64,000 nt of DNA, from the IMG/VR virus record IMGVR_UViG_3300002835_005179, positions 1 to 64,000 of that record. One strand, given 5' to 3'. The notes under the pieces are model-generated. The model was not told the origin of the DNA. It ran no database searches and saw only the letters and a list, made by a program, of their open reading frames with translations. The position numbers were made by a program, and so were the translations under genes. Below, piece by piece: positions 3,496 to 64,000 of this stretch. Positions within the stretch are counted from its first letter, which is position 1. Each line of letters begins with the position of its first letter. Source of the DNA: a virus (lineage: Duplodnaviria > Heunggongvirae > Uroviricota > Caudoviricetes).

Positions 3496-3503
3496 TATAA
3501 ATA
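3496..3503 (+). promoter_or_regulatory. T4-type late promoter TATAAATA
   Basis: Exact TATAAATA about 55 nt upstream of the sheath gene, followed by an AAGGAG ribosome-binding site. Confidence 0.6.
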
Positions 3504-8974: not shown

Positions 8975-9612
8975 AACTATTAACAGAAGTAAATGAATTC
9001 ATAAAAATTGTTTCAGAATCTGCTGAAGGTAAACCAAAAGATTATTTTATTGAAGGTATTTTCATCCAATGCGAGAAGCCAAATAGAAATAATAGAGTAT
9101 ATAAGATGGAATATATGCAACCAGAAGTAGATCGTTATGTTGAAGAATACGTCAACAAGAATAGAGCTTTTGGTGAATTAGGTCATCCAGATAATCCTAC
9201 AATTAATCTAGATAGAGTATCGCATCTTATTACTGTTCTAGAACAAAAAGGTAATGATTATATCGGTAAAGCAAAAGTTCTAGATACACCAAACGGAAAG
9301 ATTGTTAAAGCATTTATCGATGGTGGTTGTATGTTAGGTGTTTCTACTAGAGGATTAGGTTCTCTTCAACAAGAAAAGTCTTTTTCTATGGTTCAACCAG
9401 ATTACAAAATTATGACTGCCGCAGATATTGTTGCTGATCCATCTGCGCACGAAGCATTTGTGGAAGCTGTTATGGAATCAAAAGAATGGGTTTGGAATAA
9501 TGGAATTGTGAAGGAAGTAACTATTGATTCATATAAGAAGAAGCTAACAACATCAAAAAGATTACAAGAAGATAAGATTGCCATTTTTACAGACTTTCTT
9601 TCGAGATTGTAA
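8971..9612 (+). CDS. gp21: Prohead core protease (gp21-like)
   Basis: Motifs FGELGHPD and GVSTRGLGS are typical of the T4 gp21 family. Position is syntenic. Confidence 0.85.
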   Translation: MKLLTEVNEFIKIVSESAEGKPKDYFIEGIFIQCEKPNRNNRVYKMEYMQPEVDRYVEEYVNKNRAFGELGHPDNPTINLDRVSHLITVLEQKGNDYIGKAKVLDTPNGKIVKAFIDGGCMLGVSTRGLGSLQQEKSFSMVQPDYKIMTAADIVADPSAHEAFVEAVMESKEWVWNNGIVKEVTIDSYKKKLTTSKRLQEDKIAIFTDFLSRL

Positions 9613-9649
9613 ATTTAATAAATAAATTAAGAATATAGGAGAATAATTA

Positions 9650-10801
9650 ATGGAAAACAAACAAGATCCATTTGATTCAATCTTCGAAGGCATCGATCTT
9701 CCGGAAGATTTTGCTGCTAAGTTGAAGAAAGCATTCGACGATGCAGTTGATGAAAAATTAAAACAAGCAACTAAAGGTGTTATGAAAACTGAAGAGGAAG
9801 AGGAGATTGTTCATCTAGAATCCGAAGGTGAGATGGAAGATGATGAGGAAGAAGTTGTAGAACAAGACGAATCTAAAACATATTCTCTTGAAGATATCAG
9901 AGCACTATTAACTGATATCGATATCGTCAGATTACTACAATCTTCAGACGTAGAAAGAACAAAATTCTTAAATTCTATGCGTGCTGCAGTTACAGATCTA
10001 TCTGGCAACAGTATAGCAGAACCGTTCTTATCTCTAGTCATGAGTATTATACAAGTGATCGCAGATGATTCTAGAATTTCTACTATGATTGCAAGAGAAC
10101 TTAAAGATATGGAAACTGAGAAAAGCTCAGAAGAGCCAGCTGATAACATGAATCAAGTTAAAGTTAATGCTGAACTTGAAGTTTATGAAAATGTTATCGA
10201 ATCAGTAGATAAGTATCTAACTTATGTTGCTGAATCGTGGATCGAAGAAAACGCTCTAGCTGTTGAACAAGGTCTAAAGATTGAGATCATGGAATCTTTC
10301 TGGAATGGATTAAAGACTCTATACGTCGAAAATAATATTGTTCTACCAGAAGAAATTAATGTTGTTGAAGATCTAAATACAAAAATTGCCGATCTAGAAT
10401 CAACTCTTTCTGAGGAAAAGCAAGCATTTGCTGAAGAATTATCTAAGCAAAAGGCTCAATATGAAGAAAAGATAAACGAAGAAATTAATAGATCAATTGT
10501 ATACAAAAACAAAGCAGAAGAATCTACTAAGAAAGCTGTATTTGAATCAGTTTCAAAGGATCTATCTCTTTCACAAAAAGAAAGATTTGCGAAGTTAACA
10601 GAATCTGTAACTTATGAATCAAAGAAATCTTACGAAGAAAAGTTGAAAGATATTGTTAAGAATGCGTTCGATTCTTCTAAACCAAAGAAGAAATTGACCG
10701 AAGAATCAATGATTGAAGTATCTGAAGAAAATACAATTATTTCTGAAGATCCTATCATGAACCTTTATTCTCAAGCAATTTCTAAGAATGTCAAGTTTTA
10801 A
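9650..10801 (+). CDS. gp22: Prohead scaffolding protein (gp22-like)
   Basis: 383 aa, very acidic, with coiled-coil-type composition. Lies between the protease and the major capsid gene. Confidence 0.7.
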   Translation: MENKQDPFDSIFEGIDLPEDFAAKLKKAFDDAVDEKLKQATKGVMKTEEEEEIVHLESEGEMEDDEEEVVEQDESKTYSLEDIRALLTDIDIVRLLQSSDVERTKFLNSMRAAVTDLSGNSIAEPFLSLVMSIIQVIADDSRISTMIARELKDMETEKSSEEPADNMNQVKVNAELEVYENVIESVDKYLTYVAESWIEENALAVEQGLKIEIMESFWNGLKTLYVENNIVLPEEINVVEDLNTKIADLESTLSEEKQAFAEELSKQKAQYEEKINEEINRSIVYKNKAEESTKKAVFESVSKDLSLSQKERFAKLTESVTYESKKSYEEKLKDIVKNAFDSSKPKKKLTEESMIEVSEENTIISEDPIMNLYSQAISKNVKF

Positions 10802-10806: not shown

Positions 10807-10814
10807 TATAAATA
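10807..10814 (+). promoter_or_regulatory. T4-type late promoter TATAAATA
   Basis: Exact TATAAATA 31 nt upstream of the capsid gene, followed by AAGGAG. Confidence 0.6.
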
Positions 10815-12246: not shown

Positions 12247-13056
12247 ATGCCTAATAATATTTATTGTACATACCTTACAATCTACAAAGGTAACAAACTC
12301 CCTCTATATTATATTGGTTCAACTTCTGTTAATAGAATTAACAAAGGTTATCATGGAACCGTGTCTTCTAAGAAATATAAAGATATCTATAAACAAGAAT
12401 TAATATCTAATCCTCACCTATTCAAAACAAAAATACTTACAACACATGAAACCAGAGAAGAAGCTTATGAGAAAGAATTGTTCTTTCAAATAAAATTATC
12501 TGTAGTTAAATCACCAATGTATTTCAATGAATCATTGGCTGTGACAAATGGTTATTTTGGTCGTGCTCTAAATGGAAAAGATAATCCCCTACACGGTAAG
12601 AATCATTCAGAAGAAACAAGAAGAAAGATGTCTGAGAATAGAAAAGGAAAATATAAAGGAATTCCTAAGTCTGAAGAACATAAAAGAAAAATTGCATTGG
12701 CAAATACAGGTAAGAAACATTCTGAAGAATCTAAACGAAAAATGTCTTTAAATCATATTGGTATTGTTGCTTCTGATGAAACTAAGAAGAAATTATCTGA
12801 TATGAGAAAGGGTGAAAAGCATCCTCTTTATGGAAAGACACATTCTCCAGAATCAATTCAGAAGATGAAAGAGACGCATAGTAATCGTTCAGAAGAAACA
12901 CTAAAGAAGCTGTCTGCTGCCAAGAGTGGTGAAAATAATCCTAGTTATGGAAAGAAATGGTTCCATAATCCCATTACCTTAGAACAAATTAGGATCCATC
13001 CTAACAATCCTCCATCTGGATTCTTTCCTGGTAGAATTCCTAAAATTAATAAATAG
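12247..13056 (+). CDS. Free-standing GIY-YIG homing endonuclease (Seg-like) with repeated NUMOD3-type motifs
   Basis: N-terminus IYCTYLTIYKGNKLPLYYIGST, followed by repeats of the type HSEETRRKMS and HSEESKRKMS. Inserted after the capsid terminator. Ends in TAG. Confidence 0.8.
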   Translation: MPNNIYCTYLTIYKGNKLPLYYIGSTSVNRINKGYHGTVSSKKYKDIYKQELISNPHLFKTKILTTHETREEAYEKELFFQIKLSVVKSPMYFNESLAVTNGYFGRALNGKDNPLHGKNHSEETRRKMSENRKGKYKGIPKSEEHKRKIALANTGKKHSEESKRKMSLNHIGIVASDETKKKLSDMRKGEKHPLYGKTHSPESIQKMKETHSNRSEETLKKLSAAKSGENNPSYGKKWFHNPITLEQIRIHPNNPPSGFFPGRIPKINK

Positions 13057-13069: not shown

Positions 13070-13327
13070 ATGAACCTAGAAAATTTTAAAGAAGCTTATT
13101 TAACAGTTATTAATGAAGAAATTGAAGAGACCGAAGTAGTCGAAACAGAAGTAACTGATGTCGATGAAGAAACACCTGAAAACGAATTATCTGCAGCAGA
13201 TCATTTTAAGATGGGTGTTATGGCTTTGATGGGTAAGATGGATGCTTCCGAAGAAGAGAATGAAATGATCAATGATTTGGTTGCATCAATCATTTCAGAT
13301 CTTAACGATTCAATGTCTGGTGATTAA
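13070..13327 (+). CDS. Small acidic protein (85 aa) with MNLENFKEAY leader
   Basis: The first 20 nt are identical to the start of ORF 7676. Confidence 0.45.
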   Translation: MNLENFKEAYLTVINEEIEETEVVETEVTDVDEETPENELSAADHFKMGVMALMGKMDASEEENEMINDLVASIISDLNDSMSGD

Positions 13328-13914
13328 TACCATTCTACAATCTTATCGGCAATTCCATATCTTACTGCTTCTTCGGCAGAAAGCCACACATCGTGAGACG
13401 GCAAAAGAATTTCTCTTACCTTCTTTTCATTCAATCCTGTACACTTCTTATAATGAGCAAGCATTCTCTGGGTAGTTAATTCAAACTCTTTATTTCTTGC
13501 ATACAATTCATGTTCTTTTCCAAAAGAACCCCAAGAGAATTGATGTGAAAGGATAGAAGTATTCTGTGTAATATATCTCTTTCCTTTCTTTCCAGCCATG
13601 AAAATTGCAAGTCCAGCAGAAGCGATTGTCCCTAACCCAAAAGTAGAGATATCAATCTCGGATCCTTTCATAATATCAATAAGGGCAAATCCAGAACAAA
13701 GATCACCACCAACTGAATTAATCAGCATCCTGATTTCTGTTCGATCTTTTTGATCTTGGAAATTGGAATTTCTCTCAACAATATACTGAATAGCATCAGA
13801 TGTAGATTCTATGTTTATCTCGCCAGAGAGAAGATAATAACCTGCTCCCTCGAAGGAGATATACATCTGAGGAATCTCTGGCTTTGGTTTGATTTTAGAC
13901 ATTTTAGTTCTCAT
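13324..13914 (-). CDS. clpP: ClpP-family serine peptidase
   Basis: INSVGGD, TIASAGLAIFMAG (Ser), ILSHQ (His) and a C-terminal EEAVRYGIADKI match ClpP blocks. Start set at MRT (13914), which overlaps the upstream small ORF through ATGA. Confidence 0.8.
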   Translation of the reverse strand: MRTKMSKIKPKPEIPQMYISFEGAGYYLLSGEINIESTSDAIQYIVERNSNFQDQKDRTEIRMLINSVGGDLCSGFALIDIMKGSEIDISTFGLGTIASAGLAIFMAGKKGKRYITQNTSILSHQFSWGSFGKEHELYARNKEFELTTQRMLAHYKKCTGLNEKKVREILLPSHDVWLSAEEAVRYGIADKIVEWY

Positions 13915-14075
13915 TTCGGTTGAGGAATCGAACTCCAACGAAAATATTTATCAGATGAATATAAGGACTCAACAATCCTAGAAGCATCAAAGGGATTAGA
14001 GGCTTGCACCTCATAATCCCTCATCATTACGGATCTTTGTTGACCGCAATAAAATGAGCACTTGTATGTTGTCAT
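13911..14075 (-). CDS. Small ORF (54 aa) between the SPFH and ClpP genes
   Basis: Below the track cutoff. The ATG lies 1 nt after the SPFH stop and ends in an ATGA overlap with ClpP, so the region has tight operon packing. Confidence 0.35.
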   Translation of the reverse strand: MTTYKCSFYCGQQRSVMMRDYEVQASNPFDASRIVESLYSSDKYFRWSSIPQPK

Positions 14076-14076
14076 G

Positions 14077-14868
14077 TTACTTCACATTAACTAGAGGAAC
14101 AGCATTTGTACCAAGAATCATAGTGCAATTCGATTTAGAACAAGCTTCGATTTGTAACATACGAAGATATTGATCTGGAGTTAAGCCTCTAGAATCCTGA
14201 TATGCACGATCTGCTTCAGCACGTTTAATCTCAGCCGACTTACGAGACTCTTCAGCAAGAGCTCTTTGTGTTTCAGTCTTAGATCGTTGTTGTTGAACAC
14301 CCGTTTCATTATATGCCGCAATAATTTCTTTTTGTGGAGAAATCTTACCAAGCGATACATCTAAAACTTTTACAGGAATCTTATGTTTGGTTACATATTC
14401 TTGTAATTGAATTTCTAATTCTCGTTCAACTTTCTCTACAACCTCTTGTTGTAGTGCCAATTCTGGCATTGAATATTGTCGAACTTGATTACGATTCATT
14501 GTTTGGAAAGGTCGTTGAATATTCTTCTGATAGAATTCCGGCCCAAAATTCACTACTAGAGCAACAGAATCTGTAATTTGTAGAAGAACGGAAGCATGAT
14601 AATCAATTGGATTATTATCCTTGGGCATAATATCATCAAATGGCTCGTCATATTTAATTGGCTTCTTATCTACATCATAAGAATCTGTAGATAGAGCCAC
14701 GATAACAGAACCAGGTTTAATTGGTTCCTTGTCAATACCACCATGACCAAACAACCATGGTTTATAGATTAGAACTGCTTCATGTCCAGGTTCAACATTT
14801 ACTCTCGTACAAGAAGTTCCCATTAGAACCAAACATAAACTAAATACAACTGCAATTTTCTTAATCAT
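14077..14868 (-). CDS. SPFH/band-7 (stomatin/prohibitin-like) lipoprotein
   Basis: Signal peptide with lipobox LMGTSC, an SPFH-like core, and a charged helical tail (AEESRKSAEIKRAEADRA). Confidence 0.75.
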   Translation of the reverse strand: MIKKIAVVFSLCLVLMGTSCTRVNVEPGHEAVLIYKPWLFGHGGIDKEPIKPGSVIVALSTDSYDVDKKPIKYDEPFDDIMPKDNNPIDYHASVLLQITDSVALVVNFGPEFYQKNIQRPFQTMNRNQVRQYSMPELALQQEVVEKVERELEIQLQEYVTKHKIPVKVLDVSLGKISPQKEIIAAYNETGVQQQRSKTETQRALAEESRKSAEIKRAEADRAYQDSRGLTPDQYLRMLQIEACSKSNCTMILGTNAVPLVNVK

Positions 14869-14881
14869 TATTTCTCCTTAA

Positions 14882-15040
14882 TTATTCAAACCGAATCTTT
14901 CGGGTCTTCTTCTTTTCTTGAGTCGTATCAAAGAAAAGTGATATGATCTCATCAAAAGATTCTTCATTAGTCTTGATTCGAACCGAAGGATTATCGGTTG
15001 TGTAAATCGAAAAACAATCATTAGAGAACTTAACTAGCAT
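14882..15040 (-). CDS. Small ORF (52 aa)
   Basis: Fills the gap between UvdE and SPFH. Its ATG overlaps the UvdE end by 11 nt. No homology evidence. Confidence 0.3.
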   Translation of the reverse strand: MLVKFSNDCFSIYTTDNPSVRIKTNEESFDEIISLFFDTTQEKKKTRKIRFE

Positions 15041-15956
15041 AATTACTCTCCTTAAGAATTTTCATTAGAGCCAAATCTTTTGCTTTTGTTTCTAGATCAA
15101 GATAGAAATCTTTTCCATAATCATCAGGAAGCGAATTAATATAATCAGAGTGAGCAGTTCGATTACATACAATTCCTTCATGAATCGCTTTTGATTCTGA
15201 ATAATGGAATAGAGGAACCTCTTTCCAAGTAGAGAAAGCCATATCGAATGCTTCTTCTTCAGTTAATTCATATTCATTACCATTATATAACGAATGATGG
15301 AAGAAGTCAAACGTCAGAGGAATTCCAATCTTCGAGTGAATATCCAAGAATAGATGAGATGTAGAATATGACGATTGTTTATCATCATTCTCCACAACAA
15401 GTCTCTTCTTCATACTATCAGATAATCTTCCAAAGTTTGCACAGAATCGATCGGAAGTCTCTTCGGAATAAGACATTCCAACATGGATATTAATTGGATA
15501 AAATTCACTGGCCTCAAGACCCATATGATTCATGATAGAATTGTGAATCTCTAAATCTTTGATCGAATTTAGAACAACATTCTCTTTCATCGATCCCAAC
15601 TTAACAAATGGACCAGGATGAAATGATAATCTCATATCATAATATTTTGCCAAAGACCCAATATCTTGTAGGATGCTTTTAATTTTCGACCAATCAGGAA
15701 GATCTTCGAATACATATTCTGAAGCCCAAGGAAACATCTCGGAAGACATGCGGAAATTCTTAATCTTATTCTGGCCATTCCAATCTACAATCCTGAGTAG
15801 ATCTGACACGTTCTGAACAATAAGATCCGACGCATAATCTATTCCTTTTGTGAGGAATGTATCTTTGCGCATGGTTCTATTAGAAGTAAGTCCTAATGAT
15901 TTCTGGAGAGTAAGATTAATGCAACAATATCCAGGATAAATCACAATTGATCCCAA
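15030..15956 (-). CDS. uvdE: UV damage endonuclease (UvdE)
   Basis: GYCCINL, SFHPGPF, INIHVG, VVENDDK and FDFFHH blocks align with the UvdE family. Confidence 0.85.
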   Translation of the reverse strand: MGSIVIYPGYCCINLTLQKSLGLTSNRTMRKDTFLTKGIDYASDLIVQNVSDLLRIVDWNGQNKIKNFRMSSEMFPWASEYVFEDLPDWSKIKSILQDIGSLAKYYDMRLSFHPGPFVKLGSMKENVVLNSIKDLEIHNSIMNHMGLEASEFYPINIHVGMSYSEETSDRFCANFGRLSDSMKKRLVVENDDKQSSYSTSHLFLDIHSKIGIPLTFDFFHHSLYNGNEYELTEEEAFDMAFSTWKEVPLFHYSESKAIHEGIVCNRTAHSDYINSLPDDYGKDFYLDLETKAKDLALMKILKESNYAS

Positions 15957-16360
15957 CCTTCTGTTTCAAGAGTATAATATACTTTCTTGATATCAAATTC
16001 AAATATTGCCCGCATACAACCAGAACAAGGTTTCGCCAACCCATAGACTATACTATTAGTCAAAATATCATACTTAACACGACAAACATATAGACTAACT
16101 TTCTTGAAATCTTCTACATCTATTTGTCTCAATGCATTCTTAATTGCAGATATCTCTGCGTGTAGATAGATAGACAGATCTTTGTTTGTTGCATATTTAG
16201 CTTGGAGTGGAGATGATTTCATAGAATTTACTCCAACCGAAACTATCTTGTTTTTGTAAACAATAGCGGCAGCAAGTTTAGCGCCAGAAACTTTCGGATT
16301 AGCTATCGCTATTTGTTTGAGGAGAGAAAAGACTCTAGAGATCTTCAGCTCAGATTCCAT
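15941..16360 (-). CDS. Cytidine/deoxycytidylate deaminase-family protein
   Basis: Zinc motifs HAE (LHAEISAI) and PCSGC. Confidence 0.8.
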   Translation of the reverse strand: MESELKISRVFSLLKQIAIANPKVSGAKLAAAIVYKNKIVSVGVNSMKSSPLQAKYATNKDLSIYLHAEISAIKNALRQIDVEDFKKVSLYVCRVKYDILTNSIVYGLAKPCSGCMRAIFEFDIKKVYYTLETEGWDQL

Positions 16361-16366
16361 ACATTA

Positions 16367-16395
16367 AGTATACCGTATCCGACGGGTAAAGTCAA
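16367..16395 (-). promoter_or_regulatory. Sigma70-like promoter TTGACT-N17-TATACT placed 6 nt before ATG
   Basis: Minus strand reads GCTTGACTttacccgtcggatacggTATACTtaatgtATG. Confidence 0.55.
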
Positions 16396-16400
16396 GCTCA

Positions 16401-16913
16401 TCAAAAATTAAAATATTTTAATTTTGTTCGGTAGATCGAGTCGTCAATCTCTTTCAAGAATTCGAACCAATTACTCGCAATCTTGACATTTAGATAATCA
16501 CACACCATCTTGACATTACCATATCTCCAAAAATCTTCTGTACAATACACAATCGTTTTTCGACCGGATTTACCGATCGATCTTCCGAATAAGCCTAATT
16601 CTAGTAACGTAATAGGAGATTTAGTATTCGGATCAAAATAATAACAGTTAATATCTGAATTTTCTTGACACCGCAATTCCCACATCACTTGTTCGTGAAA
16701 TCTTGGATCATCCGGATGCTGCCTCCAGGATGAATCCCAGTCATCACGACGGGGATTCATAACAACAACATCTTCATGAAGAGATAGATGTTGGATTACA
16801 CGGTCTTGCCAATTATCAGCGATACCCATCTCAATAGATCCACCAAGAAAGATGGTGATATTTTCAAGGTGCTTTGCAGTCAACTTAGTTGGAGGTTTGA
16901 TTACATTAAACAT
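16401..16913 (-). CDS. Nucleoside 2-deoxyribosyltransferase-like protein
   Basis: IFLGGSIEMGIADNWQ-type motif. Start moved to MFNVIK (16913), because the longer track ORF overlaps the prs gene. Confidence 0.55.
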   Translation of the reverse strand: MFNVIKPPTKLTAKHLENITIFLGGSIEMGIADNWQDRVIQHLSLHEDVVVMNPRRDDWDSSWRQHPDDPRFHEQVMWELRCQENSDINCYYFDPNTKSPITLLELGLFGRSIGKSGRKTIVYCTEDFWRYGNVKMVCDYLNVKIASNWFEFLKEIDDSIYRTKLKYFNF

Positions 16914-17790
16914 ATAAACTATCCAATTCTTCTTTCGCAATTTCAGCCATCCAATCAATAACGTCAATAACTTCGACATTATCAGAAATACCAGACTCTG
17001 TGAAAGAATTTGTTGTGTAGATCTTATCAAAGTATTTCGATAGATCATCGAATCCTTTCGAGAAGATTCCGTGTGTCACAAACAACCGAAGATTTGGGAT
17101 CTGCAACTTTTCAGCAATACCCAAGAAAGTTCCACCACCATCACAGATATCGTCGATGATATAAGAATTTCGTGTCGTGTCTTTGATTACTGGAACTTCG
17201 AAACCAAGAAATCTGCCAGTAACAGGATCACGTTTCTTTTTGCAGTAATATTTCGGATGATTATCGGAAAGCATATCAGCATATCTATTCTTCGCACCTT
17301 CATCCGGAAAGATAATATTTGCTTCAGGATCAGTTACAAGAATTTCTTGAATAATCTTATTAATCGGAATATCTTTATACTCATAATCAAACCTGTTAGA
17401 ATGACAATCTAAAGTATAGATTTTTGCATATGGCCAGACGCAGGTAATGATATTCAAGAAAACTTTCTTACCGAGACAATCTCCTTCTACGAAGCGACGA
17501 TCGGCTCTTGAATATGGAAGATAAGGAATCACAACAGCAATATTATTGGATGGCATAGACAAAGTAATATCGTTGATTGCATCTTGCAACAGAAGCAACT
17601 TCATTACATCATCGGAATTCTTAATTCGATGAATTAAGACAACACCAAAACACGAAGTCAATGCTTTGATAGTTTCGGGTTTGAGGCGAACCTGAAGTTC
17701 GCCTCCTGGATACTTAAACCACTCGTACGAATTTTCGTCGATACGCAATACATTACGATTGGACACGAACACGCTCCTTAATGGTTTCAA
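16906..17790 (-). CDS. prs: Ribose-phosphate pyrophosphokinase (PRPP synthetase)
   Basis: PRPP-binding loop IIDDICDGGGTF and length 294 aa. Confidence 0.8.
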   Translation of the reverse strand: MKPLRSVFVSNRNVLRIDENSYEWFKYPGGELQVRLKPETIKALTSCFGVVLIHRIKNSDDVMKLLLLQDAINDITLSMPSNNIAVVIPYLPYSRADRRFVEGDCLGKKVFLNIITCVWPYAKIYTLDCHSNRFDYEYKDIPINKIIQEILVTDPEANIIFPDEGAKNRYADMLSDNHPKYYCKKKRDPVTGRFLGFEVPVIKDTTRNSYIIDDICDGGGTFLGIAEKLQIPNLRLFVTHGIFSKGFDDLSKYFDKIYTTNSFTESGISDNVEVIDVIDWMAEIAKEELDSLYV

Positions 17791-19228
17791 ACTTCACTTT
17801 ATTCAGTATACCGTCTTTCAAGATGCAAGTCAAGTCGCAATTTTCAAGTTCTTCGAGAGTCGCTTCTTCCTTACAAATCCAGTTGTTATTTTCTGGAGTC
17901 CAATCTGGAGCCTTGTAGACAGCAAGAATACCTTTACGAGATTTCTTCATTCCAGAATCAGTCTTTGGATCCTTAAAGATAGGAATGATTTTTCCATCTT
18001 TTTCGATAGCAGTCGCCTTCATTGCGAATCCGAAAGTGTCTCTTGTGACATACTCATAAGTATATGACCCGACACCAAACACCATATTATATGGTGAGAT
18101 CTTCAATTTCTCAACGATGCCAGATAGAATCTGGCGTGCACGATCCAACGTAATCGAATCACCATAGATACAACCTGCTTTGTTGATCATACGATTATGA
18201 TCCAAACCAAAAACTTCTTTCAGAAGAGCCAAGACACCAAGATCAGCTGGTCCATTACCTCGTTCTTGAATGCTAGAATTATTCTTGCCTAGTACAATCT
18301 CAACAGGATCACCGGAATCAGGACGAATAACAATCTTACCGTTACGAGCAATGATTTTATCTTTCAAACGAGGCATGAAGTCTGTTAGAACAGTCCACAG
18401 ATCCCAAGTATCAGAAACGATCGAAACGATTCCTTCTGGATAGATATCTTCAACTAGACGACGGAAAGTTTCAAATTCGTCTTCTTTACCACCAGCACAC
18501 ATAACAGAGTGCTCTGTAGCAGGAACAGAAGAACCTGTCGTAGCAATGTTTGCATCATAATAATGCTCAGCTGCTAGAATAGCAGGGATAGTATCAGTTC
18601 CATTGAACGATAGAAGGTGACCCATACCAGAAGCTACTGCATCACCTAGAGACGACATACCACGCATGGAGAAATCGTGGAATTGATAATCGATGAAACC
18701 AAAATCAGTCTCTCCTGCTTTTCGTGCCCATTCCATACCAATCTTACGATATTCAAGAGCAGTCGTTGCCGAAGTGTATGGTTTCCAAATAGATAGAGAA
18801 AGAATCGTTTCTAGGAAATTAGGAAGCCAGAAAGCGTGGTCGACTGTATTGTAAATGACAAGAGATGGAATTCCAATATTAACCGAATATCCTTCCGGAA
18901 TTGCGTAGATGTTAATAGGAAGACGTCCTTCATCATGAAGTGCCTTGATGTGGTCTGTTTTGGGATTCTGAATTCCAAGAGTTTTAGAGATTACACGGAC
19001 ATATTCTGCTTCTACTTCGATCCAAGGTACAGAGAAAAAGCTATTATCGAATTCCTTCAGAAGATCAAGTAGAAAATACTGGTGTCCAAAAACAACAATT
19101 TTTTCAATACCAGGGACACGAGATTTTCGTGCAGTCCAATTTGAGTAGACTCGTGTCACTCCTTCTGGATATTGGCGAACGTGATCAATCTTGTAGAAGT
19201 CTGCTAAGAGAACTGGGATGGTGTTCAT
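17753..19228 (-). CDS. nadV: Nicotinamide phosphoribosyltransferase (NAMPT/NadV)
   Basis: N-terminus NTIPVLLADFYKIDHVRQYP and the block FHDFSMRGMSS. Start set at MNTIP (19228). Confidence 0.85.
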   Translation of the reverse strand: MNTIPVLLADFYKIDHVRQYPEGVTRVYSNWTARKSRVPGIEKIVVFGHQYFLLDLLKEFDNSFFSVPWIEVEAEYVRVISKTLGIQNPKTDHIKALHDEGRLPINIYAIPEGYSVNIGIPSLVIYNTVDHAFWLPNFLETILSLSIWKPYTSATTALEYRKIGMEWARKAGETDFGFIDYQFHDFSMRGMSSLGDAVASGMGHLLSFNGTDTIPAILAAEHYYDANIATTGSSVPATEHSVMCAGGKEDEFETFRRLVEDIYPEGIVSIVSDTWDLWTVLTDFMPRLKDKIIARNGKIVIRPDSGDPVEIVLGKNNSSIQERGNGPADLGVLALLKEVFGLDHNRMINKAGCIYGDSITLDRARQILSGIVEKLKISPYNMVFGVGSYTYEYVTRDTFGFAMKATAIEKDGKIIPIFKDPKTDSGMKKSRKGILAVYKAPDWTPENNNWICKEEATLEELENCDLTCILKDGILNKVKFETIKERVRVQS

Positions 19229-19279
19229 AATTAACCTTTCTTTATTCATTATACTAAATATAGAATCAGAAAGCAAGCT

Positions 19280-19480
19280 TTACTTAAAAATAGTTGCCAA
19301 AAACAGGAAGAACCCAGCAAGCAAAAACAAACCAAGGAATATTGCGGCTGGAATCCAAAGAGGAGAGAGTACCCAAAGCCAAGACCAGGTAATGTGACCA
19401 GTTAATTTCAATCCGATGAATAGTAGTCCAAACATCGGATTGAAAGAGAACGAAACATTGAAGTTTTTTTCAGAAGCCAT
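19280..19480 (-). CDS. Small membrane protein (66 aa)
   Basis: Two hydrophobic segments. First gene of the leftward block. Confidence 0.5.
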   Translation of the reverse strand: MASEKNFNVSFSFNPMFGLLFIGLKLTGHITWSWLWVLSPLWIPAAIFLGLFLLAGFFLFLATIFK

Positions 19481-19570
19481 TTCAGTTTAATATTCCTTTC
19501 AATCGGTACATACCCATTATAGCGTACTGAGTCAAGCATGTAAAGGTTTTCTAGAAAAAATAAAAAAAAA

Positions 19571-19680
19571 AAAGAATATCTCCTTTATTTTCAATATCTT
19601 ACTGCAAACTATTGATTCTAAAGAGAATATTCTTTCGAAAAAAACTTGCTTCGGTTGAATGGATAAGGTATAATGGTTCT
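19571..19680 (+). promoter_or_regulatory. Conserved promoter cassette, copy A (GAATAT-box, TCAAT..ATTGA dyad, TTGCTT-N17-TATAAT-N6-ATG)
   Basis: Aligns over about 110 nt with 41130-41236 and the reverse complement of 63877-64000. -35 at 19646-19651, -10 at 19669-19674, ATG at 19681. Confidence 0.65.
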
Positions 19681-19911
19681 ATGAAAAGGAAAACTGTTCG
19701 GGTGACTGATGTTGTCGATACTGTGAATCGAATTTTAGATGTTTCCACGTGTTCTGTCGATACTCGCTGGGGCATGATTGCTGTTCTTGAACAGATTCTT
19801 CACGACTCAGGAAATTACAAGGGATATAATAATGTCAAAGACGGAAAGATTTGTGGATACAAAGAACAGCCTGATGACACGAGACGATATTATTATGGCG
19901 GGACGAAGTAA
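19681..19911 (+). CDS. Hypothetical protein (76 aa)
   Basis: The ATG at 19681 lies exactly 6 nt after TATAAT. The track ORF uses an upstream TTG inside the promoter cassette. Confidence 0.5.
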   Translation: MKRKTVRVTDVVDTVNRILDVSTCSVDTRWGMIAVLEQILHDSGNYKGYNNVKDGKICGYKEQPDDTRRYYYGGTK

Positions 19912-20285: not shown

Positions 20286-20319
20286 GATGGGGGATTTAAA
20301 ATCCCCCATCCTTTTATTT
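20286..20319 (+). terminator. Rho-independent terminator
   Basis: GATGGGGGAT-ttaaa-ATCCCCCATC followed by CTTTTATTT. Confidence 0.75.
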
Positions 20320-20421: not shown

Positions 20422-20607
20422 ATGAAGAAATCAATTTACAAAAGAAATATTGGGTCTAGGTCTTGGTCTGGGTCTAGGTCTTGGTCTTGGTCTGGGTCTT
20501 GGTCTGGGTCTTGGTCTGAGTCTAGGTCTAGGTCTGAGTCTAGGTCTAGGTCTGAGTCTAGGTCTGGGTCTGGGTCTGGGTCTTGGTCTTGGTCTAGGTC
20601 TAACTAA
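20422..20607 (+). CDS. Ser-Xaa dipeptide-repeat small protein, copy 1 (61 aa)
   Basis: Leader MKKSIYKRNIG, then (S-[RWGE])n encoded by (TCTNGG)n, ending RSN-TAA 4 nt before the next ATG. Confidence 0.5.
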   Translation: MKKSIYKRNIGSRSWSGSRSWSWSGSWSGSWSESRSRSESRSRSESRSGSGSGSWSWSRSN

Positions 20608-20611
20608 AAAT

Positions 20612-20854
20612 ATGATAAAGAAATCAATTTACAAAAGAAATATTGGGTCTTGGTCTAGGTCTGGGTCTAGGTCTGGGTCTGAGTCTAGGTCTGAGTCTTG
20701 GTCTTGGTCTGGGTCTGAGTCTAGGTCTGAGTCTGGGTCTTGGTCTAGGTCTTGGTCTGAGTCTTGGTCTAGGTCTGGGTCTGGGTCTAGGTCTAGGTCT
20801 AGGTTTAGGTCTGGGTCTAGGTCTAGGTTTAGGTTTAGGTCTGGGTCTAACTAA
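20612..20854 (+). CDS. Ser-Xaa dipeptide-repeat small protein, copy 2 (80 aa)
   Basis: Leader MIKKSIYKRNIG plus the repeat, ending GSN-TAA. Confidence 0.5.
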   Translation: MIKKSIYKRNIGSWSRSGSRSGSESRSESWSWSGSESRSESGSWSRSWSESWSRSGSGSRSRSRFRSGSRSRFRFRSGSN

Positions 20855-20858
20855 AAAT

Positions 20859-21083
20859 ATGATAAAGAAATCAATTTACAAAAGAATTATTTGGTCTAGG
20901 TCTGGGTCTGAGTCTGGGTCTAGGTCTTGGTCTGAGTCTGGGTCTTGGTCTTGGTCTTGGTCTTGGTCTGAGTCTTGGTCTGGGTCTAGGTCTTGGTCTG
21001 GGTCTGGGTCTTGGTCTTGGTCTGGGTCTGAGTCTGGGTCTTGGTCTAGGTCTAGGTCTGGGTCTAGGTCTGGGTCTAACTAA
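20859..21083 (+). CDS. Ser-Xaa dipeptide-repeat small protein, copy 3 (74 aa)
   Basis: Leader MIKKSIYKRIIW plus the repeat, ending GSN-TAA. Confidence 0.5.
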   Translation: MIKKSIYKRIIWSRSGSESGSRSWSESGSWSWSWSWSESWSGSRSWSGSGSWSWSGSESGSWSRSRSGSRSGSN

Positions 21084-24145: not shown

Positions 24146-24220
24146 GCGCTTGTAGCATAATGGTAATGTAGAAGATTCTAAACCTTCGAGATGAGAGTTC
24201 GATTCTCTCCAAGCGCACCA
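24146..24220 (+). tRNA. tRNA with anticodon CUA (amber suppressor type), CCA encoded
   Basis: - Acceptor stem GCGCTTG/CAAGCGC.
- D arm GCAT-AATGGTA-ATGT.
- Anticodon stem GAAGA/CCTTC with one A-C mismatch, loop TT-CTA-AA.
- Variable region GAGAT.
- T arm GAGAG-TTCGATT-CTCTC.
- Discriminator A followed by CCA. Confidence 0.8.
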
Positions 24221-24270: not shown

Positions 24271-24492
24271 TTGATTTTTCACTTCAATAAGAAACATCTT
24301 GAAGATCCTTCCATTCCAATGTGGTCGATCAAAGCAAAAGGTGAAACTTATTATGTGAAGCATGTAGATTGTGCTCTACCATGGAGCACAAAAGAAACTC
24401 CTGATAATCCTCATACAAAAGGATCTATCAAAATCAAAAATTGTACTTTGACAATAGACTATCTAGATAATGCTTATATAACGGGAGAGTAA
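24271..24492 (+). CDS. Hypothetical protein (73 aa, TTG start)
   Basis: Track ORF with conserved-looking PWSTKETPDNPHTKGS. An alternative ATG exists at 24319. Confidence 0.45.
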   Translation: MIFHFNKKHLEDPSIPMWSIKAKGETYYVKHVDCALPWSTKETPDNPHTKGSIKIKNCTLTIDYLDNAYITGE

Positions 24493-24512
24493 AATCTCCC
24501 GTTTCATTTTTT
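24482..24512 (+). terminator. Rho-independent terminator
   Basis: CGGGAGA-gtaaaa-TCTCCCG followed by TTTCATTTTTT. Confidence 0.7.
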
Positions 24513-44012: not shown

Positions 44013-44077
44013 ATAAGCTACCTCCCAAGTAGTTTGTGTGTTCAGATGGGAGAAAGCGAACACTTTCTCCCCATAAT

Positions 44078-44085
44078 TATTTATA
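44078..44085 (-). promoter_or_regulatory. T4-type late promoter TATAAATA (minus strand)
   Basis: Exact match on the minus strand upstream of the homing endonuclease gene. The hairpin GGAGAAAG..CTTTCTCC (44049-44070) lies between the promoter and the ribosome-binding site. Confidence 0.5.
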
Positions 44086-47068: not shown

Positions 47069-47275
47069 TTAGTTAGACCTAGACCCAGACCTAGACCTAG
47101 ACCAAGACTCAGACCTAGACCCAGACCAAGACCAAGACCCAGACCCAGACCAAGACCTAGACCTAGACCCAGACCAAGACCCAGACCCAGACCCAGACCC
47201 AGACCAAGACCAAGACCCAGACTCAGACCTAGACCTAGACCCAATATTTTTTTTGTAAATTGATTTCTTTATCAT
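47069..47275 (-). CDS. Ser-Xaa dipeptide-repeat small protein (68 aa)
   Basis: MIKKSIYKKNIG leader plus the repeat, ending RSN-TAA 4 nt before the next ATG. Confidence 0.5.
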   Translation of the reverse strand: MIKKSIYKKNIGSRSRSESGSWSWSGSGSGSGSWSGSRSRSWSGSGSWSWSGSRSESWSRSRSGSRSN

Positions 47276-47289
47276 ATTACAATTATAAC

Positions 47290-47628
47290 TTATTTTGTAA
47301 TATTAGTCAACTGGGAATCATTTGCATGCAAAATAGCATATTCTAATATCTTCTTAATTAATTTCTTGACAATTTGAATCAGAGTTTTATCATTACTGGA
47401 TACATTATTGGGAGAGTACACAACTGTCATATCAAACGTCAATATAGAAGAATCTTCTTCTTCACAAGTTATATCTGTTATTTCTATAATAGTTTCTTTA
47501 TGTTTTCCTTCATCTAATCTCAATAATATCTTTTCGTTATTGTTGTGTTCTGTAATAAAGAACGATGCTTTCATATCTGAAAATGGTACTATCTTATATG
47601 ATTCTTCTTTTTGTTTAGTATTTTTCAT
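47290..47628 (-). CDS. Hypothetical acidic protein (112 aa)
   Basis: Track ORF lying between UvsX and the repeat genes. Confidence 0.45.
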   Translation of the reverse strand: MKNTKQKEESYKIVPFSDMKASFFITEHNNNEKILLRLDEGKHKETIIEITDITCEEEDSSILTFDMTVVYSPNNVSSNDKTLIQIVKKLIKKILEYAILHANDSQLTNITK

Positions 47629-48739: not shown

Positions 48740-51253
48740 TTAGTCGAAAAACGAATCAAGAGTTGATTTGTTTTCTAATGACCAAGAAATTGCATCTAAA
48801 ATAGTAGAAATAGGTTCTATAAAAGTCTTTTGAAATTGTAAATTGTAATCTATAAATTCATGTAATTTAAGTTCCGGAGGAAGAATTGAATTGAAAGAAA
48901 TTATATTCTCTCGAATCATATTCGGTTCTTTAAGATACAAGAATTTAATCTTTTCTCCTTCGTGGATCTCAGTATACTTCTTTAGAAGATCATTCTTTTT
49001 CAAGAGATTGTTGTAAACAAGTGAACCTCTTACATGTATTGGAGTTCCTTTTGTATAGATAGAAATATTAGATGAATATGTTTTTAGATTATTAACACCT
49101 CTGGGAAATGCAATATCTTCTGGAGAAAGCGAAAGAAATTCTTTTTTTACATTATCAATATATTCACGCAAATCAGACTCATTCGATTTCATGATAATTT
49201 TAATTGCTTCTTTAATTTTACCACGACAAAATTTTGGAGTTGAAGATTTAACAGCTTCAATACCCATGATTTTCATTTTTGGTTCTGAATATCTTACTCC
49301 TTCTGAATCATAAACATTTAACATATATCTTTTCTTTGCCGTCCAAATACCACGATCGGCGATCGATTCTCTCTTCATAATCATTTTCTGTGAGTATGAA
49401 TTTAGATAATCAGCTAGATCTTCATAAGAATCATTAATTATTTTCTGAAGTTGTTCTTTGCATATTTTATCTAGAAGATCAACTGTCTGTTCGTTAGTCT
49501 TATTGGGAAAGAATTTGTTTACTAGATCTTGAAGATCTAAATATGCCGAGTCCGTATCTATTGCGATAACATAATCTTTATTCGTTTTTAATATATTTCT
49601 TAGATATCCATTCAATCTATTAGAAACCCAACGAATAGCCAATTGGCCAGATACAGTAATTGATTCTGCAATTCTCTTATCTGAGAATCTAAAATATCTA
49701 TTGGCAATTGCACCATAAGCTGAATTCAATGCAATCTTCTTAGCCATCTGCAGATTCTTATACTTTGAGATATCATTCAGAATTTGCTTAGTATCTTCAC
49801 CAGTCTTATTTGCGGATTCTAAATCTTTTTCCGCTTGAATCATTTTTGACTTATAAATCTTACGTTGTTCGAACATCCAGGACATGAGCTGTGTCAAAAA
49901 TCCATCCTTATCTCTACGATACAATTGTCCTGTCGCAGACATTGAGAAATTATTTTTCTTTAAATCTGATAGATCTATCTCCTTAGATAACAATTTATCT
50001 ACAGAAATACCAGGAATAATCTTATCTATAATTGTGTCCGGAGAAAAATTCCCGCCCATAATAAGATGAGGGTACAGCGATTGTAAATCGAAAGAAACTA
50101 CCCAATTATAGAATCCAGGTCTGGGTTCTTTTACATAAGCTCCTTCAATTTCTTCTTTAATTGATTCTTGTCTTTCAGGAATAACATAACCTCTTGAAAG
50201 TAGATGATTGTAAATAATAACATCCCACATTCTAATTTGAGAGAATACGTCATCGAAATTGACTTTTGCGTCATAAGCCATAGTCATAGCCAACTCGATT
50301 AATTTCATCTTATTTTCAAGAGAAACAACTAAATCCACATCTTTCGCATTGTATTCGAGAAATTTATTATAATCTTCTTTATAAAGAAGGTGAAGAGAAC
50401 CATACTCAGAATAATCTAATTTATTTTCACCAAGTTCAACAGAAGCAATATAATCTAATTTATAAGATTCCTGAGCAGAGTAAGTGAATTTCTTATAGAG
50501 ATCTAGATAATCAAGAACAGAGATACCGAACATATCATATGTCTGGACTTTCTTACCCATAATTTCAATAGTCTCTTCACGTAAGATTTTCCATGGCGAA
50601 AGATTCTTTGCCTTGGCTTCACCAAATACACGTGTAATTCTATTGATTAGATAGGGAATATCGAAGAATTTAACGTGCCATCCCGAAACAACATCAGGAT
50701 AATTCGATTTCCAAACCTTCAAGAATTTCTCTAGTAATATCTCTTCAGATTCACAAGGAAGATATATCGCATCGGTCAAATTTCCTGTGAAATGATCAAA
50801 TCCCAATACAATCTTTTTCTCTAGATTAGAAAATTTAATTGTAATGGCATTAATTTCTTCAATGGCATTTGAAATAGAAGGAAATCCATTCTCACAAGTA
50901 CATTCGATATCTATATATGCAACCACAATATCTTCGGTTTTCCATTGTATATCACTGTTAGTGTTTTGTGATATCCATTGATATTGTGGTTGTATATTAC
51001 CATATACTGAGAAATTACCAACATCCTTATTGCGTGCGATAAATTCTCTTGTTTCTTTTACATTCCCAGCATCAAATTCAATAACAGGATATTCATCTAA
51101 GTTCTTAAATTCCGATACTGTATTTGGTGAAGAGGCAGGAATCCAGATTCTAGGATGAAAATCATTTATCCTATCTTGTTCTCGCTTCCTGTCCTCAACA
51201 TAACGAACATATAAAGTATTTCCCCAAGATTGAACATTAGTATAATATTTCAT
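48740..51253 (-). CDS. gp43: Family B DNA polymerase (gp43)
   Basis: Exo I YIDIECTC, SLYPHLIMG, KIALNSAYGA and AIDTDSAYL. Confidence 0.9.
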   Translation of the reverse strand: MKYYTNVQSWGNTLYVRYVEDRKREQDRINDFHPRIWIPASSPNTVSEFKNLDEYPVIEFDAGNVKETREFIARNKDVGNFSVYGNIQPQYQWISQNTNSDIQWKTEDIVVAYIDIECTCENGFPSISNAIEEINAITIKFSNLEKKIVLGFDHFTGNLTDAIYLPCESEEILLEKFLKVWKSNYPDVVSGWHVKFFDIPYLINRITRVFGEAKAKNLSPWKILREETIEIMGKKVQTYDMFGISVLDYLDLYKKFTYSAQESYKLDYIASVELGENKLDYSEYGSLHLLYKEDYNKFLEYNAKDVDLVVSLENKMKLIELAMTMAYDAKVNFDDVFSQIRMWDVIIYNHLLSRGYVIPERQESIKEEIEGAYVKEPRPGFYNWVVSFDLQSLYPHLIMGGNFSPDTIIDKIIPGISVDKLLSKEIDLSDLKKNNFSMSATGQLYRRDKDGFLTQLMSWMFEQRKIYKSKMIQAEKDLESANKTGEDTKQILNDISKYKNLQMAKKIALNSAYGAIANRYFRFSDKRIAESITVSGQLAIRWVSNRLNGYLRNILKTNKDYVIAIDTDSAYLDLQDLVNKFFPNKTNEQTVDLLDKICKEQLQKIINDSYEDLADYLNSYSQKMIMKRESIADRGIWTAKKRYMLNVYDSEGVRYSEPKMKIMGIEAVKSSTPKFCRGKIKEAIKIIMKSNESDLREYIDNVKKEFLSLSPEDIAFPRGVNNLKTYSSNISIYTKGTPIHVRGSLVYNNLLKKNDLLKKYTEIHEGEKIKFLYLKEPNMIRENIISFNSILPPELKLHEFIDYNLQFQKTFIEPISTILDAISWSLENKSTLDSFFD

Positions 51254-51285
51254 ATTACTAATTATACTATATTATTTGTTATTTG

Positions 51286-51918
51286 TCAAGTAATTTGTAT
51301 CTTAGATGAGAAGTCATTTACTTTTGCAAGCAGAGACGCACCATATCCGGAATCTAGATTAAGTCCTCTGCCACCAATTACTTGTGTTACTGCTCTATCT
51401 GCATCGGCTTGATTTGTGAATTGTATTTTTCCAGATAATCCAACCAATACAAATTTAACAGAAATAATTGCAGAAATATTTCTATCAGTTACCAACAGAT
51501 CTGGATCTTGGATAATATTGAATCCACATAGATCACCATACGTTTTATAATTTGATCTACCAGTTAATTGGATGTATCCTCTCCCACGATAAGTCCAACC
51601 ATCTCCTGGATTAACATTACCCATTCCCCTACCAATAACATTGGTATTTCCATAAATCAATTCAGCAAATTCTTGTGGATTGCATTTTATTCTTGACAAT
51701 TCTGAATCTGACAATCGATAAACCCTAGAACCAAATATAGATTTGATTCTAGAATTATCTGTTTTACAATAATTTAGATTTTCTTCTTTTGGGATTAAAC
51801 CACACTCTTTATATGCATTGGATATTATCGCTTTTTTTAAAAAATCACATTTAATACCGCAAGCTACACATGCATCTAATATTGGTTGTATAAGTTGTTT
51901 ATCCATATCTATGTCCAA
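51286..51918 (-). CDS. GH19-like lysozyme (endolysin candidate)
   Basis: GDGWTYRGRGYIQLTGRSNYKTYG matches the GH19 core. Confidence 0.65.
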   Translation of the reverse strand: MDIDMDKQLIQPILDACVACGIKCDFLKKAIISNAYKECGLIPKEENLNYCKTDNSRIKSIFGSRVYRLSDSELSRIKCNPQEFAELIYGNTNVIGRGMGNVNPGDGWTYRGRGYIQLTGRSNYKTYGDLCGFNIIQDPDLLVTDRNISAIISVKFVLVGLSGKIQFTNQADADRAVTQVIGGRGLNLDSGYGASLLAKVNDFSSKIQIT

Positions 51919-61944: not shown

Positions 61945-62160
61945 TTATAGTGTGTAATAAATTTCGACTGAACCATTACGATTCTTCTTGGCTTCAGTTC
62001 GAATCTTAAAACCTTCCTTGCGAAGACTCGATACTACAGCTCGGGCATTTGCAATACCAAGATCACGTTGGGCCTGTCGAGCCGTTAGTTGATTACGATT
62101 CTTTCGTGAGAGTACATGTAGTACACGTTCCTTTTGAGTCATATCAGTTAATCGTTCCAT
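61945..62160 (-). CDS. Small winged-helix/HTH-like DNA-binding protein (71 aa)
   Basis: LTARQAQRDLGIANARAVVSSLRKEGF pattern. GC-richer than its neighbours. Confidence 0.45.
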   Translation of the reverse strand: MERLTDMTQKERVLHVLSRKNRNQLTARQAQRDLGIANARAVVSSLRKEGFKIRTEAKKNRNGSVEIYYTL

Positions 62161-63627: not shown

Positions 63628-63876
63628 TTAAACTTGAGTTAGAAATAATGAGTCCTCATTATCTTTAATGAATTTCAGGACATCAAATAAAGTGTTCAAA
63701 ATTTTATGATCATACGAATATTTCGAAGGGGACTTGGGATCAACATAACGGTGTTCAAAGGAACAATTGTTAGCATCGTACGATCCAATATACTCGTCGG
63801 TCTTGATGTCATAAAAATCCAACCAAGAACCAGTCAACGAAGGACCGATTTTAATTTTAGAAGTAGCGACGATCAT
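63628..63876 (-). CDS. Hypothetical protein (82 aa)
   Basis: Track ORF. The ATG lies exactly 6 nt after the TATAAT of cassette copy C. Confidence 0.45.
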   Translation of the reverse strand: MIVATSKIKIGPSLTGSWLDFYDIKTDEYIGSYDANNCSFEHRYVDPKSPSKYSYDHKILNTLFDVLKFIKDNEDSLFLTQV

Positions 63877-64000
63877 ACAACCATTATACCTGATCCAAAA
63901 CCGAGGAGCAAGTTTTTTTGAAAGAATATCTCATTTAAAATCAATGACTTGCTGCAAGTGATTGAAAACAAATAGAATATTCTTTCACACAATCTTCAAG
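63877..64000 (-). promoter_or_regulatory. Conserved promoter cassette, copy C (minus orientation, runs off the window)
   Basis: Minus strand reads GAATATTC..TTTTCAATCACTTGCAGCAAGTCATTGA..GAGATATTCTTTCAAAAAAACTTGCTC-N17-TATAAT-ggttgt-ATG. Confidence 0.65.

Follow-up and report, generated by a model that had tools for sequence, protein, structure and literature searches.

PeSL (promoter-early stem-loop) cassettes of T4-type phages consist of a stem-loop, an AT-rich tract, a σ70 early promoter, a Shine-Dalgarno sequence and an ATG, and occur in hyperplastic regions and at indels; one of these stem-loops, which lie just upstream of the promoter, has been assayed as a terminator (PMC2839356, PMC4122927; Arbiol et al. 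2010, Comeau et al. 2014). Recombination between copies that yields mini-circles counts as a further PeSL feature. T4 early promoters are strong σ70 promoters whose upstream DNA is A/T-rich and UP-like (review PMC2988021); in Deinococcus-Thermus, a −10 element adjoining the open reading frame (ORF) gives leaderless expression (PMC12340547); and intergenic repeats that carry promoters are described for halovirus HF2 (PMC8707807). Here we describe a cassette of ~115 bp in a 64,000-nucleotide (nt) stretch of the IMG/VR record IMGVR_UViG_3300002835_005179 (positions 1 to 64,000; hereafter the window), which is part of the genome (~33% GC) of an uncultured T4-like myophage. The cassette joins a 66-bp inverted repeat to a σ70-type promoter whose −10 element ends a few nucleotides before a start codon. 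We think it probable that it serves this lineage as a portable early-promoter module with a leaderless start and an upstream repeat that acts as DNA; the predicted promoter and leaderless parts of the cassette are well supported by sequence comparison.

The cassette appears to be a PeSL-like, self-contained and exchangeable early-promoter module that fails two features defining PeSLs, the terminator stem-loop and the Shine-Dalgarno sequence. It resembles PeSLs in three respects: it is borne by a T4-like genome; its inverted repeat is followed directly by an AT-rich tract and a near-consensus σ70 promoter (spacer ~17 nt), the module extending to the ATG; and it stands beside small genes without known homologues, at insertion, deletion or replacement boundaries between relatives. 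It differs in that the six nucleotides before the ATG leave no room for a Shine-Dalgarno sequence, the ATG falling at the predicted +1, and in that its repeat is 66 bp long, AT-rich and conserved in sequence across the lineage, and lacks the sequence features of a terminator-type stem-loop. Given that the repeat has no T-run and no net covariation and is frequently placed between divergent promoters, a terminator function for it is unsupported.

Re-alignment of both strands gave four full copies in the window (Table 1). A sequence-only reading of this DNA had placed the cassette at three sites, with a partial copy at 41061-41129. The three sites were borne out: a 30-nt core pattern (up to 3 mismatches) matched the window four times, always at cassette sites, vs. 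0.00 matches expected (100 shuffles). The supposed partial copy is in fact the repeat of a further, minus-strand cassette (cassette 2), which drives 40253-41017; as 41062-41127 is the repeat of that cassette, the 41.1-kb intergenic region consists of two back-to-back cassettes. All copies share one layout: a 66-bp imperfect inverted repeat (two 33-bp arms, ~−110 to −45), an A-tract (−44 to −37), TTGnnn, a 16–17-nt spacer and TATAAT or TATACT. In all four, as the earlier reading had stated, exactly 6 nt then separate the −10 element from the ATG, without a Shine-Dalgarno sequence; this segment is GGTTCT-like and its last base is a pyrimidine. The two GAATATTC boxes said to flank an imperfect dyad are present, but boxes and central dyad are parts of the single 66-bp inverted repeat. 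The plus strand of 63921-63986 matches 19571-19636, and identity between copies within the window genome is 71–77%. The claim that all three sites are strand switches holds for 19.5 kb and 41.1 kb, both divergent switches of the window bearing cassettes, but not for 63.9 kb, where same-strand gp32 and then NUDIX precede the cassette and all sizeable ORFs upstream are on the same strand in the contigs that extend the window (L005, L222-L225).

The cassette-driven first genes had no Pfam matches and matched PHROGs of unknown function only. On the other side of the cassette-1 repeat, the divergent promoter P19480, of which L006 and L007 carry an orthologous copy, is predicted to give a leadered mRNA for gene 19280-19480. 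The Shine-Dalgarno-containing leader of that gene, 19481-19515 (−), ATTGAAAGGAATATT, resembles the repeat-arm consensus ATTGAAAACAAAGGAGATATTC, perhaps by chance, perhaps as a hint to where the arms came from.

Table 1. Positions of the cassettes and of related features in the window (aa, amino acids; nt, nucleotides; L numbers denote contigs)
Feature	Position	Strand	Details
Inverted repeat, cassette 1	19571..19636	.	nhmmer E 1e-27; common to divergent promoters P19681(+) and P19480(−)
Promoter, cassette 1	19637..19683	+	A-tract GAAAAAAAC 19637-19645; −35 TTGCTT 19646-19651; N17; −10 TATAAT 19669-19674; GGTTCT; ATG 19681
First gene, cassette 1	19681-19911	+	ORF, 76 aa
Divergent promoter, other side of cassette-1 repeat	19481..19544	−	TTTACA 19544-19539; N17; TATAAT 19521-19516; then 35 nt with AAAGGAA; ATG 19480
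Promoter, cassette 2	41015..41061	−	A-tract; −35 TTGATT 41051-41046; N16; −10 TATACT 41029-41024; GAATGT; ATG 41017
First gene, cassette 2	40253-41017	−	ORF, 254 aa; start conserved in L098/L058
Inverted repeat, cassette 2	41062..41127	.	repeat match and alignment
Inverted repeat, cassette 3	41128..41193	.	abuts cassette-2 repeat directly
Promoter, cassette 3	41194..41239	+	A-tract; −35 TTGATT 41203-41208; N16; −10 TATAAT 41225-41230; GGTTAT; ATG 41237
First gene, cassette 3	41237-41626	+	ORF, 129 aa
Inverted repeat, cassette 4	63921..63986	.	distal arm and centre also encode last residues and stop of upstream same-strand NUDIX gene (beyond window end)
Promoter, cassette 4	63874..63920	−	A-tract; −35 TTGCTC 63911-63906; N17; −10 TATAAT 63888-63883; GGTTGT; ATG 63876
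First gene, cassette 4	63628-63876	−	ORF, 82 aa; operon continues with RNA-ligase remnant, polynucleotide kinase (PNK) and winged helix-turn-helix (wHTH) gene
wHTH protein (Pfam HTH_39)	61945..62160	−	71 aa; cassette-4 operon
Leaderless-type promoter without repeat	16358..16395	−	TTGACT-N17-TATACT-TAATGT-ATG 16360 (dCMP deaminase)
Leaderless-type promoter without repeat	39309..39345	−	TTGACT-N17-TATAAT-AAATT-ATG 39311 (DUF6915)
Leaderless-type promoter without repeat	47273..47310	−	TTGACT-N17-TATAAT-TGTAAT-ATG 47275 (Ser-X repeat peptide)
Leaderless-type promoter without repeat	51251..51289	−	TTGACA-N17-TATAAT-TAGTAAT-ATG 51253 (family B DNA polymerase, gp43 homologue)
Late motif TATAAATA	3496-3503, 7653-7660, 10807-10814, ~24513-20		15–54 nt before the starts of structural genes 3558, 7676, 10845, 24540; AAGGAG-type ribosome-binding sites

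For 84 gene starts in the window, every promoter-to-ATG distance between 0 and 69 nt was scored. Eight of the 14 promoter matches lie 5–7 nt from the ATG (six of them at exactly 6 nt), and the other six are single and scattered over 20–63 nt; the eight close-set promoters are those of the four cassettes and four others that lack the repeat. The σ70-type promoters of this phage have the leaderless layout in general; it is not peculiar to the cassette. A −10 element that ends ~5–8 nt before the AUG with no ribosome-binding site (RBS), enriched over other distances, is the sequence signature of a leaderless promoter, and it was found here. The totals of a generic promoter scan were not above those of shuffles (69 vs. 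65; 40 vs. 44); only top-scoring promoter sites beside ATGs are informative. σ70 polymerase prefers to start at a purine flanked by pyrimidines; given that the seventh base after the −10 element is the A of the ATG, a purine so flanked, we infer a leaderless mRNA. The DNA polymerase gene has a 12/12 consensus promoter just upstream of its ATG, without a Shine-Dalgarno sequence, and its product aligns with cyanophage gp43 starting at residue 1; gp43 of cyanophage S-SM2 is translationally coupled to the upstream gene, without a leaderless promoter. AAGGAG-type sites lie 7–14 nt upstream of most internal genes, and the T4-type late motif TATAAATA stands 15–65 nt before starts, mostly with a Shine-Dalgarno site. 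The first gene of each σ70-type unit is predicted to be translated from a leaderless mRNA, and internal and late genes via Shine-Dalgarno sites. A gene for a gp33-like coactivator lies just outside the window (L222 6506-6781).

Three other assignments were rejected. In MotA-type middle promoters the MotA box lies ~12 nt from the −10 element (PMC4122927); on inspection, the TGCTT within TTGCTT sits 17 nt from the −10 element here, and other copies have TTGATT or TTGACT. A Bacteroidota-type promoter (TAnnTTTG) does not fit the sequence, and the consensus promoters within genes at 15310, 17833, 18114 and 23018 do not abut usable ATG starts.

The cassette family was gathered by pattern scans of IMG/VR and then by a profile search built from 6 copies; together they gave at least 60 distinct cassette-plus-promoter copies in 47 loci (the window and IMG/VR contigs of related phages). 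The sequence-only reading had named, beforehand, lack of conservation in relatives as grounds for giving up its proposal, and the 60 distinct copies in 47 loci pass that test. Counting only ATGs that open ORFs of 30 aa or more, the start codon lies 6–9 nt behind the −10 element in 48/60 copies (6 nt in 32, 7 nt in 1, 8 nt in 11 and 9 nt in 4); 12/60 copies have no qualifying ATG and are decayed or leadered. In one decayed copy, L001_8715, the ATG has become ATA and is followed by AAGGAA and a new ATG. The −10 hexamer is TATAAT in 42 copies, TATACT in 13 and TACAAT in 5; the segment between it and the ATG is conserved, most commonly as GGTTCT. Family cassettes precede mutually unrelated genes, and the 254-aa gene has the same start in homologues 75–78% identical to it. 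The proposed promoter with a leaderless start is supported by its geometry, by its positional enrichment in the window and by its conservation over 60 copies with different downstream genes.

Public gene calls miss the 82-aa cassette ORF (9241-9489 in L222 and L225, corresponding to window 63628-63876) in two of four contigs with identical DNA there. The omission is probably due to the lack of an RBS, and predicted leaderless first genes therefore escape annotation.

Compared with known leaderless systems, the phage shares a −10 element a few bases before the AUG, without an RBS, at many genes of one genome; it differs in having a full −35/−10 promoter plus an upstream element, and in being a T4-like phage with strong Shine-Dalgarno sequences on other genes, leaderless starts being confined to the first gene of σ70-type units. 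Leaderless expression also occurs in λ cI transcribed from PRM and in actinobacterial genes, and Sevostyanova et al. are said to have described it in 2007 for the Thermus phage ϕYS40. Our search of the published literature found no report of a leaderless promoter layout in T4-like phages, and we know of no earlier T4-like phage with leaderless host-polymerase units, the DNA polymerase gene included, beside Shine-Dalgarno sequences on other genes. Halovirus HF2 is similar in that a virus-wide repeated intergenic element gives promoters to many transcription units, and different in its archaeal transcription system and unrelated sequences; its repeats are not known to us to have an inverted-repeat architecture.

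Comparison with related contigs suggests that the cassettes mark the boundaries of variable or exchanged gene modules, as PeSLs do; the module is complete in itself as far as the ATG and would for that reason delimit early-gene exchange between relatives. The only part of the window that L006 and L007 share is 186 bp long (92% identity); it extends from the minus-strand gene's leader as far as the final base of the −10 element on the plus strand, and the genes on either side are unrelated. L098 and L058 are 74–81% identical to the window and syntenic over 33–48 kb; their homology breaks off 14 nt past the cassette-3 ATG and is back at RNA ligase, their homologue of gene 41747 lies across the cassette pair from its position in the window, and their other gaps fall at promoter-flanked genes. 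In L036 and L064 the first gene is a different one, but the order cassette, PNK, wHTH is unchanged. L092 (10,615 nt), compared with window 40985-52580, is 99% identical but has a changed block order, 44158-52580 followed by 40985-42883; at its junction, which falls at cassette 2, the 254-aa gene is down to 13 codons and is followed by an extra core palindrome, AATGACTTGCAACAAGTCATT. Elsewhere, 38-nt direct repeats (44105-44142 and 45059-45096; 95% identity) flank gene 44239-45051. A NUMOD3 homing-endonuclease-like gene, 43191-44012 (−), lies near them, and L098 and L058 have ~670 nt in place of window segment 42883-45057; a second NUMOD3 gene, 12247-13056 (+), is common to several otherwise unrelated contigs. 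Within the cassette-4 operon, a 60-aa ORF, 63435-63617 (−), matches RNA ligases at their C-terminal end alone (phrog_968, positions 345-393 of 398); given that the near-identical L223 has a full 338-aa RNA ligase gene (8666-9682), the window ORF is taken to be a deletion remnant.

Were the cassette a true PeSL, the repeat would be transcribed into an RNA stem-loop by which the upstream transcript is terminated or stabilised, perhaps from either direction, and the promoter would restart transcription; described PeSLs provide the precedent, yet we regard this as unlikely. Symmetric positions pair in 73.6% of cases, compared with 42–48% in slid registers and 75.7% after column shuffling; with 53 distinct repeats, the values are 66.2% observed and 68.0% shuffled. 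As column shuffles pair as well or better, there is no net compensatory covariation; as G-T mismatches (7.7%) are no commoner than A-C mismatches (7.4%), nothing points to tolerance of RNA wobble pairs on the sense strand; and in a block-wise pairing test the repeat centre and T-tract blocks are anti-correlated. Predicted RNA folds (−9 to −24 kcal/mol) have AT-rich stems with internal loops; 3′ of the repeat there is an A-run and no U-tract; and a terminator scan of the window does not flag the repeats, whereas it finds classical GC-rich stems with T-runs behind genes elsewhere (e.g. 20286-20310, 24480-24503 and 44224-44240), so that the repeat lacks the GC-rich stem and U-run of an intrinsic terminator. 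These four observations (no net covariation, modest AT-rich folds, A-run, negative terminator scan) led us to reject a terminator or hairpin as the main function. Moreover, of the 30 copies with classifiable upstream context, 21 stand at divergent junctions, with no transcript running into the repeat. Conservation extends to the arms as sequence, and their spacing from the promoter is fixed, the anchor in the proximal arm lying 56–57 bp from the −10 element in 41/55 copies; together with the lack of net covariation and of a U-tract, this favours a protein-binding or architectural element at the DNA level over a terminator hairpin. Several points nevertheless weigh against the reading we prefer. 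The repeats fold as RNA better than shuffles (z −0.6 to −5.8); 9/30 classifiable copies stand behind a same-strand gene, where a hairpin could matter, and the NUDIX gene extends into the repeat; and one 4-bp arm block (CTCC/GGAG, TCTC/GAGA, CTCG/CGAG) covaries (75.8% vs. 66.7% shuffled; 0/500 shuffles as high), which could reflect pairing or shared descent. Beyond these points, which suit a hairpin, the ORFs scanned offered no DNA-binding protein other than the wHTH protein, itself no more than a candidate; the block order of L092 could be a real rearrangement at the cassette or an assembly chimera; homology-driven recombination between copies is expected to be inefficient, because their identity within the genome is only 71–77%; and promoter use, start site and timing are all deduced from sequence.

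A repeat without function of its own, conserved as the core of a bidirectional promoter module that is selfish or passively copied, its apparent conservation reflecting recent spread and recombination between phages, seems to us similarly improbable. It would account for the 186-bp cassette that is 92% identical between contigs with unrelated flanks, for arm sub-blocks that occur as two freely assorting variants, as recombination would give, and for the location of cassettes at indel and replacement boundaries. It does not sit well with selective conservation within the repeat: in 35/35 aligned copies an identical set of positions shows little or no variation, whereas adjacent positions and the spacer of the promoter vary freely; and orthologous copies in 75–80% identical relatives have diverged only in the variable blocks. 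The two arms are equally informative (1.34 and 1.28 bits per position) and have a mirrored conservation profile (ATAT, TTT, TCA(A) and TT, ~7 bp apart), and both are retained even at single-promoter copies; the phasing to the promoter is likewise kept. Finally, the start might not be leaderless at all, if the TATAAT beside the ATG were not an active −10 element or the annotated ATGs were not true starts. A minority of the family that is leadered, with a Shine-Dalgarno sequence after the same promoter (e.g. L001_8715, P19480), would agree with this; however, the promoter peak at 5–7 nt is sharp, no alternative promoter or Shine-Dalgarno sequence lies upstream, the position of the ATG is conserved before unrelated ORFs, and both the 254-aa protein and DNA polymerase align with homologues from residue 1, so we consider this explanation very unlikely.

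In the reading that we prefer, a leaderless early module with a repeat acting as DNA, host σ70 RNA polymerase would initiate on the A of the start codon; each early unit would have its first gene read from leaderless mRNA, and downstream and late genes would be translated via AAGGAG-type RBSs. The repeat would act as double-stranded DNA, probably as an upstream binding or architectural site for the adjacent promoter, or for both promoters where these are divergent; a symmetric protein would occupy it, whether a regulator encoded by the phage or a nucleoid protein of the host, and the outer box and A-tract resemble a UP element. A putative binding-site role is the most likely reading of the repeat. 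In keeping with an operator, its inverted half-sites are conserved in sequence, not by compensatory change, and stand in fixed register with the promoter. The earlier suggestion of an operator for a dedicated regulator gains from these symmetric arms, the fixed phase and the absence of net covariation, and loses from position: the repeat ends at ~−45 and overlaps neither the −35 nor the −10 element nor the start, so that it is not a classical overlapping repressor operator, and an activator or architectural site fits better. Such an operator is plausible; a host architectural protein or a UP-like function fits the repeat equally well.

Each arm contains a conserved TCAA, four variable bases and TT plus purine, with a T-tract before it, and the repeat is centred at ~−77. 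We take this TCAA-N4-TT-purine pattern to be akin to an IHF core. IHF assists phage promoters such as Mu Pe and λ pL, its consensus being WATCAANNNNTTR; the cassette resembles these in the arm motif with its T-tract and in a centre placed where a DNA-bending protein might draw upstream DNA towards the polymerase, and differs in that the likeness is limited to a short, degenerate motif, of which the two copies overlap in head-to-head orientation. The window showed no gene for IHF or HU. The proximal outer box and A-tract read AGAATATTCTTTCGAAAAAAA; Estrem et al. reportedly gave the UP-element consensus in 1998 as AAAWWTWTTTTNNAAAA, which AGAATATTCTTTCGAAAAAAA resembles. Like T4 early promoters, the cassette has a conserved A-tract at ~−40 and conserved A/T-rich DNA to ~−60; unlike them, it is conserved to −110 as a mirrored, equally conserved second arm, even with a single promoter, and T4 early mRNAs are leadered. 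For the wHTH protein, no solved homologue was found by sequence; its gene is conserved in L036 and L064, where its co-occurrence with the cassette is inseparable from phylogeny. More tentatively, and as a possibility we rather doubt, early expression could be organised in two layers, with all σ70 units leaderless and a subset of them under the lineage-specific 66-bp operator, bound by a dedicated phage protein such as the wHTH protein.

The window carries genes of the T4-type core, namely terminase (gp17), tail sheath (gp18), gp20 portal, family B DNA polymerase (gp43), a DnaB-like helicase and UvsX, and further genes for NAMPT, ClpP, a ClpX-like ATPase, Hsp20, RNA ligase, PNK and a TonB-type outer-membrane protein; public contigs with the same PNK gene continue beyond the window end with NUDIX, gp32, gp59, a gp33-like coactivator, UvsW and UvsY. 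The portal is 44–48% and the DNA polymerase ~50% identical to those of T4-like cyanophages, these matches being distant and at the protein level only, and at the DNA level no close cultured phage came up when 8 kb were compared by megablast with 50,697 phage records. Rfam matches in the window comprise one transfer-messenger RNA (tmRNA) and one tRNA, both away from the cassettes, and no Rfam RNA family covers any window cassette. The tRNA, 24146-24220 (+), has the anticodon CTA, that of an amber (UAG) suppressor, and is labelled tRNA-Pyl by ARAGORN. An auxiliary gene cluster, 13324-19276 (−), encodes ClpP, SPFH/Band 7, UvdE UV endonuclease, dCMP deaminase, nucleoside 2-deoxyribosyltransferase-like and phosphoribosyl pyrophosphate (PRPP)-synthetase-like proteins and NAMPT (NAD salvage). 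Five paralogous small ORFs at 20422-21083 (+) and 46897-47275 (−) each begin MIKKSIYK(R/K)NIGS and continue with 50–60 residues of Ser-X dipeptide repeats (X = W, R, G, E), the DNA having a 12-nt period; the two clusters are inverted copies (86–89% identity), and ORF 47275 stands behind a leaderless-type promoter.

Some features bear on the host. In many family copies the −10 region is GCTATAAT, which presumably resembles alphaproteobacterial promoters. A two-piece (permuted) tmRNA gene, 37828-38207 (−), which ARAGORN did not report, matches Rfam tmRNA_permuted at 99.9 bits and alpha_tmRNA at 92.9 bits, scoring best as the alphaproteobacterial type; it adjoins the gene for the ClpX-like ATPase (36771-37793), ClpP being encoded at 13324-13914. 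Two-piece tmRNAs are common in pelagimyophage-like T4-type phages (PMC9004378). The tmRNA points toward Alphaproteobacteria. The outer-membrane β-barrel protein encoded at 52608-55793 (−) (1061 aa, with a CarboxypepD_reg domain, TonB-dependent-receptor-like) points toward Acidobacteriota: its best bacterial matches are metagenome-assembled genomes of Bryobacterales/Acidobacteriota (only 43–48% identity), whose GC content is 55–66%, compared with ~33% for the window.

If it is true, a leaderless early regulon would be informative on the translation apparatus of an uncultured host and would suggest a route to the separate control of early and late translation. Were the two-layer programme to hold as well, early expression would be set apart from middle and late expression at the initiation of transcription and of translation alike, and newly acquired genes could be expressed without any RBS through the self-contained cassette. 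A search for a new regulator could start from the conserved 66-bp repeat as a defined target, and a promoter and start codon without an RBS would be a compact plug-in for new genes, in phage engineering as in evolution. The PeSL concept, that of mobile regulatory cassettes, would thereby be extended to a T4-like lineage far removed from the known cases.

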